A program made the translations under genes and the position numbers. A model generated the notes under the pieces. The model did not search any database. It was not told where the DNA came from and saw only the letters and a program-made list of their open reading frames with translations. Shown here piece after piece: positions 25,188 to 29,432 of a stretch of DNA of 32,000 nucleotides. Source of the DNA: an uncultured bacterium (GTDB lineage: Bacteria > Patescibacteriota > Gracilibacteria > UBA1369 > PNNO01); contig OY969931.1 in assembly GCA_963704705.1 (NCBI GenBank), forward strand, positions 990,001-1,022,000, read 5' to 3'. How positions within the stretch are numbered: the stretch's first letter is position 1; every line of letters begins with the position of its first letter.

Positions 25188-25216
25188 TTGATATTTTATA
25201 GATATTATGATATAAT
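25188..25216 (+). promoter_or_regulatory. Near-consensus sigma70-type promoter upstream of pilT
   Basis: TTGATA (25188-25193), a 17-nt spacer, then TATAAT (25211-25216). It lies 29 nt upstream of the ATG at 25245. Confidence 0.5.
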
Positions 25217-25244: not shown

Positions 25245-26309
25245 ATGGACTTAAAACTATCAAAAATATTCAGAACAGCAGTGCAATATAATGCCTCTGA
25301 TATCTATATAACAACCGGTTCAAAGCCGATACTTAGAATCAACGGTGATTTGGTAAGAATTCAGGAACATGAGCCGTTTTCAAAGAAAATGGCAGAAGAA
25401 TTTTTACTGGAAATAATGTCAGAAGAACAAAAAAGACATTTTGCAAAGAAACTTGATCTGGATTTTTCAATTGATATCGAATCTATCGGAAGATTCAGGG
25501 TTAATATGTTTGTTCAAAGAAAAGGTATAGGAGCTATTTTCAGGGTAATCCCGAACAAAATCTTTACAATGGATGAACTTAATCTACCTGAACAGCTTAA
25601 AAACATACCTAAATTCAAAAACGGGCTAGTTATAGTTACAGGTCCTACAAGTTCAGGTAAATCAACTACACTTTCAGCTATTGTTAATGAAATTAATGTT
25701 AAAGATGCAAAGCATATTATTACAATTGAAGATCCTATTGAGTTCATTCATGAATCTCAAAGCTCTGTTATTGATCAAAGAGAGGTTGGAACGCATACAT
25801 TAAGCTTTCAGCGCGCTTTAAAATCTTCTTTGCGTGAAGATCCGGATGTAATTTTAATCGGTGAAATGCGTGATCTTGAAACAATTTCGCTTGCTATTAC
25901 CGCTGCTGAAACAGGGCATCTTGTTCTTGCAACCCTGCATACGAGCGGTGCAGCAAAATCTATTGATCGTATTATTGATGCTTTCCCTAGTGAACAGCAA
26001 AATCAAATTAGAACGCAATTAGCAGAAGCTTTAAAAGCTGTGATTTGGCAAAATCTATTAAAAACAAAAGATAGAAAAGGCCGAATAGGAGCTTTTGAAA
26101 TATTATTTGGAAATCACGCGATTGCAAATATGATAAGAAAAGGAAACACACATCAAATTGATTCGGTACTTGAAACAAGCACTCATGAAGGCATGCAGAC
26201 AATGAAAAAATCATTGGAAGATTTGATGCAGGCAGACCTTGTTGATGAAGAAGAAGCACTTGCTTTTATGCCTAAAGAATTAGATGAAACAGAAGGAAAA
26301 ACCAACTAA
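25245..26309 (+). CDS. pilT: Type IV pilus retraction ATPase PilT family
   Basis: GLVIVTGPTSSGKSTTLSA (Walker A), DVILIGEMRDLETI (Walker B/Asp box), TGHLVLATLHT (His box) and HAIANMIRKGNTHQI (PilT-type AIxNxIRExK motif). Confidence 0.9.
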   Translation: MDLKLSKIFRTAVQYNASDIYITTGSKPILRINGDLVRIQEHEPFSKKMAEEFLLEIMSEEQKRHFAKKLDLDFSIDIESIGRFRVNMFVQRKGIGAIFRVIPNKIFTMDELNLPEQLKNIPKFKNGLVIVTGPTSSGKSTTLSAIVNEINVKDAKHIITIEDPIEFIHESQSSVIDQREVGTHTLSFQRALKSSLREDPDVILIGEMRDLETISLAITAAETGHLVLATLHTSGAAKSIDRIIDAFPSEQQNQIRTQLAEALKAVIWQNLLKTKDRKGRIGAFEILFGNHAIANMIRKGNTHQIDSVLETSTHEGMQTMKKSLEDLMQADLVDEEEALAFMPKELDETEGKTN

Positions 26310-26314
26310 CATAA

Positions 26315-27112
26315 ATGGAAATGATTGGAAATAAAAACAAAAATAAAAGTTGGATGATTAAAATATTGGCTCTGGCGATTATCGTTTTTTTTAATGGGAC
26401 GGTTTTTGGAGGGGTTGCGATGGCCAATCCTACGACTTGTAAAAACACATATGATGGAGCAGTTAAACAATGTGAAAAAGATGCAAATAATCAAGCAATT
26501 GAAAAATGTGGTGCATACGAACCAGGGACACCAACCAGGCAAGCATGTGAAGAAGATAATAGGATAGAAAAAACAAAAACAACTTGCCTCGAAACTGCAA
26601 AATCAACTTATAATGATTGTCTTACTGCAAGCGCAAATTGCGGAAATGGAATACCAGAACCAGGCGAAGAATGTGATGATGGAGAAGGTAAGGGTGATGA
26701 CGTAGATAAATATTTAGATGCAACAAAACCTGATAAAGAAAAACAATTGGATTCTTGTTTTGAATGCAAATATGTTGATGTTCCTTATGAATTTAATGTA
26801 ACAAAATATTTAAAAATTCCTGAAGGTCAGACTTACCTTGAAAAAAGCACAAATACTGATACTTCGGTAAGTTTAAAAAAAGGAGTTATTTATTTTATTG
26901 TTACAGGAATAGAATTCGCCACAAAAATAATTAGTGCGTTTGCATTATTATTTATAATTGTCGGCGGCATAGTTTTAATGGTTTCAAGTGGTAATTCGTC
27001 TCTTCAGCAAAAAGGTAAAAGGCTGATTTTATATTCGATATTGGGATTAGTTATTGCATTCATGTCATTAATAATCGTTACATCCGTTCAATCAATATTT
27101 TATACAACTTAA
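26315..27112 (+). CDS. Pilin-like hairpin protein 1: signal peptide, Cys-rich ectodomain with CGNG..GE.CDDG module, C-terminal VirB2/TrbC-like two-helix hairpin
   Basis: Signal MIKILALAIIVFFNGTVFGGVAMA. CGNGIPEPGEECDDGEG...SCFECKY lies at aa 109-151 (nt 26639-26767). The C-terminus is ISAFALLFIIVGGIVLMVSSGNSSLQQKGKRLILYSILGLVIAFMSLIIV. Confidence 0.7.
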   Translation: MEMIGNKNKNKSWMIKILALAIIVFFNGTVFGGVAMANPTTCKNTYDGAVKQCEKDANNQAIEKCGAYEPGTPTRQACEEDNRIEKTKTTCLETAKSTYNDCLTASANCGNGIPEPGEECDDGEGKGDDVDKYLDATKPDKEKQLDSCFECKYVDVPYEFNVTKYLKIPEGQTYLEKSTNTDTSVSLKKGVIYFIVTGIEFATKIISAFALLFIIVGGIVLMVSSGNSSLQQKGKRLILYSILGLVIAFMSLIIVTSVQSIFYTT

Positions 27113-27664
27113 ATGAAAAAATTACTGGCACTTACAATTTGTTTAATGATTTCAATTCCCCTTTTAAGTGGAGTTGCATTAGCCGCAGATCCAAAATTAA
27201 CACCAGAAACTGTTTGTCCGACTCTAAATACCGGACAGGATACTTCAGGAATCTTTGTGATTTTAGAAGAACCTTTGGGAGGGCCGGATGCTATTTATTG
27301 TTTTAGGGTATGTTCAAGAATAGTAAAAGAAAAAAATAATTGTAAAATAAAAGCAACATGTGACAAAACAGATAAAGATTTAGGACCTAATCCAACTTGT
27401 CAAAGAATACAAGTTATTAAAGCAACATCAGGTGTAAATTTGCTTAATCAATATGTTGGATTGATCTATTTGTGGTCTGCAGGAACAATAGGAATAATAG
27501 CAGTATTAACGATTGTAATAAGCGGAATACAAATAATGACTGCGGGTGGTTCAGGTAATATTGATACAGCTAAAAGCAGAATAGTTCAGGCAATATTCGG
27601 TTTAGTCGTATTGTTTTTGTCAGGCTTGATTCTTTATACAATTAACCCAACTTTCTTTGTTTAA
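27113..27664 (+). CDS. Pilin-like hairpin protein 2 (six-Cys ectodomain plus VirB2/TrbC-like hairpin)
   Basis: Signal MKKLLALTICLMISIPLLSGVALA. C-terminus GTIGIIAVLTIVISGIQIMTAGGSGNIDTAKSRIVQAIFGLVVLFLSGLILY. The start abuts the previous stop (TAAATG). Confidence 0.7.
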   Translation: MKKLLALTICLMISIPLLSGVALAADPKLTPETVCPTLNTGQDTSGIFVILEEPLGGPDAIYCFRVCSRIVKEKNNCKIKATCDKTDKDLGPNPTCQRIQVIKATSGVNLLNQYVGLIYLWSAGTIGIIAVLTIVISGIQIMTAGGSGNIDTAKSRIVQAIFGLVVLFLSGLILYTINPTFFV

Positions 27665-28460
27665 AAGTTTAAAACAATTAGGTGCGATTTTAATTTTAAG
27701 TTTAATACTTATTAGTTCAATTAATACAGTTTTTGCAGCTACTTCAACAACTTATGAAGAATGTATTCAGGCATTTAAATCTGATAATAATAATTATGCT
27801 GCTTGTGATGCTATGCAAAAAGATGCAGAAAAGTGTTTTACAGACGCCGAAGCAAGCTTTAAAGAAATCTGCAATAATAATGCTACATGTATTCAAAATC
27901 TTAAAAATGATCCTCAAAGTTTAGCATTATGTTTGCAAAAAGATGATGACGCTAAAAAATGTATAACTAAAGCGGATCAATCTTTTGAAGAAATTTGCCG
28001 CGCACAGTTCCCATCGAATACAACTTCAACCACAGGTTCTTCATCTTGCGGAAACGGAATTTTTGAAGAAGGTGAAGGATGCGATGATGGAAATTTAATG
28101 AGTGGAGACGGATGTGATTCAAAATGCATGACTGAAGAGACAGTTCCACCGGCAATACCTAATATCAAAACTCTTCCTGGCCCTAACGCGCCAACCGTAG
28201 GTAATGTAAGCCCTTATTTAATGTCTACTTTCTTGCCGCGAATAGCCAAAACTGTTATATCTTTTGCCATTGGTGCCGCTGTTTTAGGATTAATTATAAG
28301 TTCGATCGGGTTATTAACAGCCTATGGTAATGAAGAAAAATATGGTAACGCAAAAAAAGGATTATTATTTTCTATGATTGGACTTGTTATAAGTTTATTG
28401 GCATTTGCAATTGTACAATTGATATTCTTTACAGGATTTCAAATCGGTAATATTACATAA
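27657..28460 (+). CDS. Pilin-like hairpin protein 3: duplicated Cys-helix motif, CGNG..GEGCDDGN..GDGCDSKC module, C-terminal hairpin (TTG start)
   Basis: Signal LGAILILSLILISSINTVFA. CGNGIFEEGEGCDDGNLMSGDGCDSKC lies at aa 131-157 (nt 28047-28127). C-terminus FAIGAAVLGLIISSIGLLTAYGNEEKYGNAKKGLLFSMIGLVISLLAFAIV. It overlaps the previous gene by 8 nt, and there is no in-frame ATG near the signal peptide. Confidence 0.65.
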   Translation: MFKSLKQLGAILILSLILISSINTVFAATSTTYEECIQAFKSDNNNYAACDAMQKDAEKCFTDAEASFKEICNNNATCIQNLKNDPQSLALCLQKDDDAKKCITKADQSFEEICRAQFPSNTTSTTGSSSCGNGIFEEGEGCDDGNLMSGDGCDSKCMTEETVPPAIPNIKTLPGPNAPTVGNVSPYLMSTFLPRIAKTVISFAIGAAVLGLIISSIGLLTAYGNEEKYGNAKKGLLFSMIGLVISLLAFAIVQLIFFTGFQIGNIT

Positions 28461-28894
28461 TGAAAACAAAAAAATACTTAAAAACAGGAATTTCAATTGT
28501 GGTTTTAATATCCGCTCTGTTAATAAATGCTGTTTTTGTTCAGGCTGCGACAATACCTGAAAAAAAACCTAAAATTGAAGATCTTTTATATAAATATGAA
28601 TCAAGTTTTACTGCTAATCCTACAACGACTGATTACATTGCTTCGCTTCCTGAAGATACTTCTCCGGGTCAATTACTTTCACAATTGGTATTTTACTTAT
28701 TAATCGTATGCAACATACTCGCGTTTATTTCATTTTTAGCGGCTGGAGTTATGATGGTTATTTCACAAGGTAATGATGAAGAAATAACAAAAGCAAAACG
28801 AATATTTACTTATACATTAATTGCATTGGTTGTTTGCGCAACCGCACTCGCGCTGGTGACAGGTATAACAAAATTAAGATTTTTTAATCCGTAA
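28460..28894 (+). CDS. Pilin-like hairpin protein 4 (short Cys-free ectodomain plus hairpin)
   Basis: Signal ISIVVLISALLINAVFVQA. C-terminus CNILAFISFLAAGVMMVISQGNDEEITKAKRIFTYTLIALVVCATALALV. TAATG start/stop overlap with the previous gene. Confidence 0.7.
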   Translation: MKTKKYLKTGISIVVLISALLINAVFVQAATIPEKKPKIEDLLYKYESSFTANPTTTDYIASLPEDTSPGQLLSQLVFYLLIVCNILAFISFLAAGVMMVISQGNDEEITKAKRIFTYTLIALVVCATALALVTGITKLRFFNP

Positions 28895-28895
28895 A

Positions 28896-29432
28896 ATGAT
28901 AAAAAAATTACTGACAACAGGGCTTTTAACACTAATAATTATACTGACAATACCAGCTACATTTGCTCAGCGTGCAATTGACCCTTCACTTAAACCTGAA
29001 AATGCACCTGGTGTACCTTTAACCGGGCCAGGAGTAGTTGATTGTTTGAATGAATATAAACAAACACAATTAGCTGAAACAATAAAAAAAGAAATTGAAG
29101 GAAAATCTGCTGATGAACAGAAAACTATTCTGGAAAATCACAAAACAGAAATAGCAAAATACTGGGATGTTAATTCTTCTATGTGCAAAGGTCATGAAGA
29201 AGAACCAATTACCGCATTCATTCAAATAATTGCAGGTGCATTGCTAATGCTTACAGGTGGTATAGCGGTAATAGTCATAGCTGTTGGTGGCGTAATGTAT
29301 GTTGTTTCAGGCGGAAATCAGCAACAAATGGAATTCGCTAAAAACACCTTAAAATACGGCTTTATTGGTATGGCAGTAATAATATTTTCATATTATATAG
29401 TTCAGACTGTTCTTACTCTTATTATTGGGTAG
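28896..29432 (+). CDS. Pilin-like hairpin protein 5 (two-Cys ectodomain plus hairpin)
   Basis: Signal LLTTGLLTLIIILTIPATFA. C-terminus IAGALLMLTGGIAVIVIAVGGVMYVVSGGNQQQMEFAKNTLKYGFIGMAVIIFSYYIV. There is a 1-nt gap after the previous gene. Confidence 0.7.
   Translation: MIKKLLTTGLLTLIIILTIPATFAQRAIDPSLKPENAPGVPLTGPGVVDCLNEYKQTQLAETIKKEIEGKSADEQKTILENHKTEIAKYWDVNSSMCKGHEEEPITAFIQIIAGALLMLTGGIAVIVIAVGGVMYVVSGGNQQQMEFAKNTLKYGFIGMAVIIFSYYIVQTVLTLIIG

Follow-up and report, generated by a model that had tools for sequence, protein, structure and literature searches.

Introduction

The locus described here bears on how ultra-small, host-dependent Patescibacteria recognise and hold their partner cells. 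The stretch of DNA analysed (the window, 32,000 nucleotides; contig OY969931.1 of assembly GCA_963704705.1, positions 990,001 to 1,022,000 of the forward strand) comes from an uncultured, ultra-small bacterium with a Peregrinibacteria/Peribacteria genome and carries, at 26315-29432 on the + strand, five co-oriented tandem genes of the PF18895 (T4SS_pilin) type, which abut or overlap. VirB2-like pilin arrays are widespread in Patescibacteria (PMC12102498, PMC10633639, PMC12857230), and such an array is essential in Southlakia epibionticum ML1 (Wang et al. 2023, PMC10633639), the one genetically tested system. Proteins 1 and 3 of the array have large, Cys-rich N-terminal domains (heads) ahead of a two-helix hairpin, and an earlier note on this DNA had proposed that one conserved hairpin is combined here with swappable, disulfide-rich heads. 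What such heads do on two members of a pilin-type array is the question that the locus raises. With modest confidence, we suggest that they are exported, disulfide-stapled variable heads on two subunits of a conserved five-gene VirB2-like (PF18895) assembly, with a role in contact or specificity.

Results

Heads vary at two positions of a conserved five-gene array

The order of genes around the array (ftsQ, sbp, a gene for a 191-residue protein, dus, pilT, the five PF18895 genes, the convergent metG and a type IV pilus operon) was kept in nine related loci, namely L001, L003, L005 (cut at a contig end and starting from gene 2), L006, L007, L008, L009 and the more distant L017 and L018. The related contigs carry the labels Candidatus Peribacteria, Candidatus Peregrinibacteria or Patescibacteria group. 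The pilT gene stands directly before the array in every one of the nine loci that covers it, with gaps of 5-70 nucleotides or small overlaps. Reciprocal best matches agreed position by position across loci, and since the window gene that each of these genes matched best was the one at the same position, the five paralogues are taken to be old and position-specific. A recent tandem duplication of the five genes was rejected, as position-wise orthologues exist in genomes whose PilT and Dus are only 75% identical. The hairpins of the other paralogues are 18-27% identical to that of protein 1, and the duplications are too ancient to be dated at the DNA level, as the earlier note had proposed to do.

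Conservation differed markedly between positions. Mean head identity was 25% at position 1 (head length 139-387 residues) and 27% at position 3 (157-251 residues), with a mean hairpin identity of 79% at both, while heads at positions 2, 4 and 5 were of constant length, with mean identities of 51-67% for the head and 72-78% for the hairpin. The proposal of a conserved hairpin with swappable heads thus held strongly between orthologues of different strains, and not among the five paralogues themselves. In L017 and L018, the proteins at positions 1 and 3 are only 144-159 residues long and have no Cys in the ectodomain, a Thr/Pro-rich linker joining the signal peptide straight to the conserved pre-hairpin motif. 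In an unrooted tree of PilT and Dus, a branch with 100/99 support parted these two loci from the seven genomes that have heads, so that a single gain or a single loss of the heads suffices, the direction being unsettled in an unrooted tree.

The sharpest changes were seen between close relatives. The window and L006 share ~90% DNA identity over dus, pilT and the array, and identity fell to 7-37%, with ~270 gap columns, only at 26435-26638, which lies within the hypervariable cassette of protein 1 (26426-26638, residues 38-108; this and all features of the array are on the + strand). At the amino acid level, the two versions of protein 1 were 83% identical in the signal peptide, about 19-21% in the cassette, 91% in the repeat and stalk that follow it, and 99% in the hairpin. 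The cassette was 14% identical to that of L008 and 7% to that of L007, and the protein 1 hairpin (26885-27112) was 96-99% identical in L006, L007 and L008. When the window was compared with L008 (~88% DNA background), identity collapsed in the cassette of protein 1 and also in the head of protein 3 (27789-28227); it was 35-57% in the variable cassette of protein 3 (27738-28046, residues 28-130). Sister genomes with 94-96% identical PilT and Dus carry cassettes that cannot be aligned.

We estimated the proportions of nonsynonymous (pN) and synonymous (pS) differences in the protein 1 cassette at ~0.60 and ~0.52, respectively; pS in the flanks was 0.15-0.30. These values are what one would expect if a very divergent allele, or sequence that is not homologous, had taken the place of the cassette, and are no proof of positive selection. 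The heads could alternatively have a structural role, as spacers or stalks by which the assembly is raised or braced across the wall or an S-layer, their variability reflecting weak constraint outside a disulfide scaffold. This would agree with the conservation of Cys parity and helical character alone, with a head length that is free to vary, with the dispensability of heads in L017 and L018, with the SLH-domain envelope proteins encoded in the genome, and with a cassette pN/pS of ~1 that is not clearly above 1. It sits poorly with change that is concentrated at two of five positions and has sharp borders, and with cassettes that are already unalignable between sister genomes, while the constant length and much higher identity of the heads at positions 2, 4 and 5 point to position-specific pressure and not to general drift. 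We regard a mere spacer role as distinctly unlikely.

An assembly chimera, which the earlier note had raised as a possible explanation, was excluded by the recurrence of the fusion in at least seven independent assemblies. That the fusion or its variability is an artefact of assembly or gene calling deserves almost no credence. The metagenome-type source genome is a single closed-looking contig of 1.37 Mb that is 99.4% complete, the same fusions are found in independent JGI, ENA, NCBI and Logan assemblies, and no reading frame is broken, gene starts and overlaps being conserved.

The cassette of the window protein 1 was closer to the alleles P0064, P0070 and P0068 of other contigs (47%, 42% and 37% identity) than to that of the near-sister L006 (19%), which hints at allele exchange. 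Homologous recombination within conserved flanking sequence may be how the cassettes are replaced. The 3' half of the protein 1 gene (26787-27086), which adjoins the unalignable cassette, is 95-96% identical in DNA to L006 and hence above the ~90% background; a recent exchange or sweep of this segment would fit the elevated identity. Neisseria-like silent donor cassettes were rejected, as tblastn and blastn searches with both cassettes against the whole genome returned only the cassettes themselves and chance matches of at most 25 nucleotides. A diversity-generating retroelement was likewise rejected for the cassettes: no template repeat was found, and the differences are indels or complete replacements, not adenine-specific substitutions. 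The genome encodes one reverse transcriptase (514716-515348 of the genome, minus strand; RVT_1, 62 bits; 427-residue frame), and three stretches of DNA within ~2 kb of its gene match the cassettes, all of them very short and at chance level.

A Cys-rich repeat is canonical in protein 3 and degenerate in protein 1

The earlier note had assigned modules of proteins 1 and 3 to the Myxococcus-type Cys-rich repeat. The assignment stood for protein 3, where residues 131-157 (28047-28127) form a canonical Cys-rich acidic repeat with the spacing C131-x10-C142-x10-C153-x3-C157. This repeat scored 42.1 bits against TIGR02232 (E 5.6e-11; cut-off 20.8 bits) and 24.2 bits against PF13948, below the cut-off of 27 bits, and was 55-72% identical to repeats from other large genes of the same genome.

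The TIGR02232-type module of protein 1 (26639-26773; C109, C120, C148 and C151) is degenerate. It contains the peptide CGNGIPEPGEECDDGEG at residues 109-125 (26639-26689) and SCFECKY at residues 147-153 (26753-26773); all peptides quoted from proteins 1 and 3 in the earlier note were found at their places, except that SCFECKY ends at 26773 and not at 26767. The module matched the first half of TIGR02232 only, at 18.2 bits, which is below the cut-off, and reached 20.6 bits in a six-frame search of the genome, or 21.5 bits together with its neighbours. C109-x10-C120-DDG is retained, followed by 27 residues before C148-x2-C151, and the four-Cys spacing is thus preserved in part; an insertion of ~24 residues in the protein 1 lineage sets the last two Cys apart from the DDG core and takes the place of the GDGC turn. 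The assignment of protein 1 to this repeat was upheld only through orthology. CGN..E.EECDD was kept in 7/7 sequences of the alignment of position-1 orthologues, and L001 has a canonical repeat (44.0 bits against TIGR02232) at the site homologous to the protein 1 module. Because this motif is invariant and a canonical repeat occupies the same site in L001, we conclude that the protein 1 module derives from a real repeat. The DNA of the repeats in proteins 1 and 3 (family D1) is 71% identical over 65 nucleotides.

Across the genome, TIGR02232 found 86 matches. Proteins 1 and 3 have one copy apiece and no tandem array, and arrays of several to dozens of copies are found elsewhere in the genome. 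Judged by these profile matches, the repeat on the two proteins is a module heavily used by this lineage, with ~85 occurrences in large surface proteins of the genome. The giant open frames at 601100-607100 of the genome (1460 and 549 residues and a 190-residue piece) are made up almost entirely of TIGR02232 repeats placed end to end and account for ~60 of the 86 matches.

Cassettes are predicted to be helical and are probably stapled by disulfides

Ahead of the repeats, the protein 1 cassette contains 6 Cys and has predicted helices at residues 39-65, 73-81 and 84-105, and the protein 3 cassette contains 8 Cys and is predicted to form a helical bundle. Four Cys-helix strings, at 26435-26509 and 26543-26620 in protein 1 and at 27801-27872 and 27927-27998 in protein 3, had been read in the earlier note as internal duplications within each protein. 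For protein 3 this proved correct. Its cassette contains two copies of a 33-residue Cys-helix module (residues 40-72 and 82-114) with a period of 42 residues; the Smith-Waterman score of 78 compared with 25.4 +/- 5.4 in shuffled sequences, with 0/2000 shuffles scoring as high, and the duplication is visible in the DNA with a period of 126 nucleotides (family D2). The module was present in one or two copies in position-3 orthologues only, and a hidden Markov model (HMM) of it found no copy in position-1 proteins. The analogous pair in protein 1 did not survive the same analysis, as 365/2000 shuffles scored as high, and homology between the cassettes of proteins 1 and 3 was similarly rejected as being at chance level (522/2000 shuffles).

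AlphaFold2 models built with orthologue alignments were helical at residues 31-120 of protein 3, with a predicted local distance difference test score (pLDDT) of 83-91, and at residues 39-105 of protein 1 (pLDDT 77-85); confidence was moderate in the hairpins. A phmmer search with the protein 3 cassette against 1.84 billion representative proteins matched only one orthologue and two cytoplasmic TPR_12 proteins. One of the latter had 12 matched stretches (E 1.4e-10), and its repeats share the 42-residue period of the cassette. A TPR relationship was rejected, since the Pfam TPR models miss protein 3, and the matches are probably an effect of repetition and composition.

The number of ectodomain Cys was even in 27/28 head-bearing orthologues (ectodomains of 107-356 residues), the single odd case being on a contig of 1.5 kb. 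The genome encodes VKOR (86.5 bits), and a profile search found no DsbB in the genome. MdbA-like and VKOR families are enriched in Candidate Phyla Radiation (CPR) bacteria (PMC6744442). AxA signal peptides ahead of the heads, the basic loop between the hairpin helices, the even Cys counts and VKOR together place the heads, by prediction, outside the cytoplasm, where the earlier note had also expected them, and the heads are probably disulfide-bonded. The Cys counts that the note gave for the ectodomains of proteins 2, 4 and 5 (6, 0 and 2) were correct.

The PF18895 hairpin is constrained and serves as a general module

All five proteins scored above the PF18895 gathering cut-off of 26.6 bits (27.7, 27.4, 28.7, 34.7 and 34.4 bits for proteins 1-5). 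In all of them, a hydrophobic signal segment at the N-terminus ends in an AxA-type site and is followed by the ectodomain and then, at the C-terminus, by two hydrophobic helices with a short loop between them; signal segments and helices were delineated from hydropathy windows and the AxA sites were read off the sequences. The loop is basic, and its G41 and K50 are invariant across the paralogues. In an alignment of 16 orthologues of protein 3, most invariant columns were in the linker and the hairpin, the latter at 28239-28460. The ratio of nonsynonymous to synonymous substitution rates (dN/dS) of the hairpins was 0.00-0.11 overall, with 0.02-0.03 for protein 1 and 0.06-0.11 for protein 3, and that of pilT was 0.04-0.05. 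The hairpins are under purifying selection comparable to that on pilT.

PF18895 was present in 59/61 sampled genomes of the phylum, mostly in frames of 95-220 residues. Among 150 listed matches from a 60-genome sample, ~12% were in frames of at least 240 residues; large extra domains on PF18895 hairpins are thus in the minority in the phylum and not a rarity, although the earlier note considered a folded N-terminal domain of 150-190 residues on a VirB2-like pilin unusual. We examined twelve regions with frames of at least 240 residues from other lineages. In L019, L020, L024, L025, L027 and L029 (genomes G050, G052, G015 and G053), hairpins were fused to unrelated Cys-rich domains with 6-25 Cys, placed before or after the hairpin; for example, L019 has 20 Cys at the N-terminal side, and L024 has 25 and 22 Cys at the C-terminal side. 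No CGNG-type repeat was found in the twelve large-frame regions.

The genome of the window has 15 PF18895 hairpins in total, spread over 11 genes, and from these sequences the hairpin is a general module in this genome. At 537777-544355 of the genome (L015:4778-11356), two genes (371 and 315 residues) contain three hairpins apiece. They are followed by the gene for a 1483-residue protein, in which a signal peptide and a single hairpin are combined with many PKD domains and a hydrophobic segment at the C-terminus, after which comes the gene for a 775-residue PKD protein.

The array adjoins pilT and lies far from VirB4

The pilT-family ATPase gene (25245-26309; TIGR01420, 452 bits) ends 5 nucleotides before the start of protein 1. 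Upstream of it, a promoter-like site (TTGATA-17-TATAAT with a TG extension; 25188-25216, 11/12 matches), identified by consensus match only, is the sole strong promoter candidate before the array, and the + strand showed no terminator-like site from pilT to the protein 5 gene. This arrangement fits one transcript from pilT to protein 5, and the five genes are probably co-transcribed with pilT. A retraction-type ATPase may thus be co-expressed with VirB2-like proteins.

Protein 1 (26315-27112, 265 residues) comprises a signal peptide, the variable Cys-helix cassette, the degenerate repeat, a conserved stalk and the hairpin. Protein 2 (27113-27664, 183 residues) has a head of constant length with 6 Cys. 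Protein 3 (27657-28460, 267 residues), which has a TTG start and overlaps the protein 2 gene by 8 nucleotides, comprises a signal peptide, the duplicated Cys-helix cassette, one TIGR02232 repeat, a conserved Pro-rich linker and the hairpin. Protein 4 (28460-28894, 144 residues) is the shortest member, with a head of 39 residues that lacks Cys, and is a candidate for the core subunit. Protein 5 (28896-29432, 178 residues) has a 79-residue head with 2 Cys, and its gene overlaps the convergent metG by 11 nucleotides.

The sole VirB4-like ATPase of the genome (779 residues; TraG P-loop, AAA_10 and a weak TraC match) is encoded on the minus strand at ~854800-857200 (L014:6835-9174), between gyrB and gyrA. 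It lies next to an unannotated 909-residue gene and an SLH/PDZ/S41 protease, and no pilin genes were found near it. The only TrbL-like match in the genome, at 293 kb, scored 18.9 bits, below the cut-off, and the array is not encoded together with VirB4, VirB3 or VirB6. With the VirB4-like ATPase distant, and pilT and the type IV pilus operon adjacent, a link of the array to a type IV secretion system (T4SS) is unsupported by the gene neighbourhood. According to PMC12102498, ~40% of Patescibacteria assemblies with pilins likewise lack linkage to T4SS machinery.

The hairpin could alternatively do no more than anchor the proteins in the membrane by its two helices, or it could belong to the type IV pilus/PilT machinery. 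In either case there would be no VirB2-type filament, proteins 1 and 3 would be ordinary anchored surface proteins with heads located at the cell surface, and co-assembly would not be needed. The position of the array beside pilT and the type IV pilus operon, and not beside VirB4, speaks for this explanation, as do the fusion of a hairpin to a 1483-residue PKD-repeat protein, the strings of three hairpins in each of two genes, and the Cys-rich domains that other lineages place after and not before the hairpin; moreover, the hairpin profile matched no solved pilin. A passive anchor would hardly need a fixed set of five position-specific paralogues, retained over deep divergence and with hairpins under PilT-like purifying selection, or a loop whose G and K are invariant across paralogues, and pilin arrays are essential in Southlakia (PMC10633639). 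On balance we consider the anchor explanation unlikely, though less so than a spacer role for the heads, and favour a VirB2-like assembly with two headed subunits.

Discussion

We propose that the five proteins would be exported by Sec and cleaved by signal peptidase I after the AxA site, and that the C-terminal hairpin would then anchor them in the membrane, its two ends facing outward and its basic GN..(A/G)K loop inward. Between the signal peptide and the conserved pre-hairpin stalk, proteins 1 and 3 have a lineage-specific insertion, made up of a helical Cys-stapled cassette followed by one TIGR02232-type repeat, which would acquire its disulfides from a VKOR-based oxidation system. The five hairpins may co-assemble into one hetero-oligomer, either a pilus-like filament or a membrane-embedded ring, with subunits 1 and 3 displaying their heads on its exterior. 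In the structure of the F-pilus, both termini of the pilin face the exterior of the filament, and an N-terminal head would thus point outward. The heads could act as contact or specificity modules toward a host cell or a surface, and adhesion or recognition of a host or surface is a plausible role for them. Their turnover would involve gain and loss of modules as well as cassette replacement, for which the conserved signal-peptide and repeat/stalk sequences could provide homology arms.

Several observations weigh against this proposal. The hairpin profile found no VirB2 or TraA pilin among PDB sequences (the best match, E 0.11, was unrelated), TrbC matches were below threshold (E 0.056, for protein 2 only), and it is the name of the Pfam family that ties the hairpins to true conjugative pilins. 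The array, at 1016-1019 kb of the genome, adjoins pilT and the type IV pilus operon, with the VirB4-like ATPase ~160 kb away. pN and pS are both saturated in the cassette, where positive selection, replaced alleles and a faulty alignment of sequences that are not homologous would all look alike, and the fast change of the heads could also reflect low constraint. AlphaFold2 confidence was low in the repeat and the linkers, and a Foldseek search of PDB with the protein 3 model returned nothing below E 0.8 and only generic helical hairpins. Heads of 150-390 residues on every subunit would crowd the surface of a filament. Finally, a filament, co-assembly, surface exposure and binding are all proposals drawn from sequences and models.

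A bolder version can be stated, of which we are doubtful. The array would form a hetero-oligomeric VirB2-type surface filament, expressed together with PilT and perhaps also retracted by it. Subunits 1 and 3 would supply receptor-binding heads, stapled by disulfides, that strains exchange by transformation and homologous recombination at the conserved signal-peptide and repeat/stalk sequences on either side, and the cassettes would set the host range of an episymbiont. The locus shows that a Cys-rich acidic repeat previously known from giant surface proteins also serves, in a single copy, on an anchor of pilin type. It provides a natural experiment, with a fixed set of five subunits, two of them headed, headless arrays in a sister lineage and wholesale swaps of heads between close genomes. 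The cassettes of proteins 1 and 3 (26426-26638 and 27738-28046) are concrete candidate specificity determinants.

Comparison with known systems

The array resembles the VirB2-like arrays of Patescibacteria (Quinonero-Coronel et al. 2025, PMC12102498; PF18895/PF04956) in its tandem genes for a signal peptide and a two-helix hairpin, in its five members (2-11 reported), in the 18-27% identity of its paralogues to protein 1 (reported mean 25%) and in its monoderm, ultra-small host lineage. It differs from the virB4-linked arrays in coming after pilT, beside a type IV pilus operon, and from the published arrays in that the heads at two fixed positions are rich in Cys and contain a TIGR02232 repeat. 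The searchable text of the published surveys (PMC12102498, PMC10633639) describes divergent pilins and arrays, and not added ectodomains or position-specific turnover of heads.

Anantharaman et al. (2016, PMC4736985) described large Cys-rich extracellular proteins of Peribacteria that vary between strains and bear a weak similarity to the Myxococcus repeat. Pilin arrays and these proteins have thus both been published, and we found no paper on their fusion or on position-specific turnover in the text that could be searched. The heads share with Cys-rich acidic repeat proteins (TIGR02232 myxo_disulf_rpt / PF13948 DUF4215) the pattern C-x10-C-DDGN-x-GDGC-x3-C, an exported context, variability between strains and the same bacterial group. 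Unlike those proteins, which have long tandem arrays and are 600-1500 residues in size, proteins 1 and 3 are ~265 residues long and have a single copy (degenerate in protein 1), joined to a pilin-type hairpin.

A more distant likeness is to the Mbov_0395 / ICE_MMCAP2_0565 pilin-like conjugal transfer protein (NF045849) of integrative and conjugative elements (ICEs) of Mycoplasma, also a monoderm lineage. All five hairpins were weakly similar to NF045849, the best being protein 5 (26 bits, E 5e-6). Unlike the Mycoplasma protein, those of the array have no ICE context, and all scores were below the cut-off of 40 bits.

Type IV pilins of Neisseria have a disulfide-bounded hypervariable region, with pilE/pilS cassettes. 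Variation among VirB2 paralogues occurs in Bartonella and Anaplasma, as cited in PMC12102498. In these systems, as in the array described here, a conserved core is combined with an exposed, disulfide-containing part that changes fast, and alleles are replaced between close strains. Unlike Neisseria, the genome of the window is without silent donor cassettes or template repeats. Unlike all three, the array gains, loses and replaces whole folded domains of 70-300 residues and not short loops, and the hosts that its heads would face are presumably other microbes and not an immune system.

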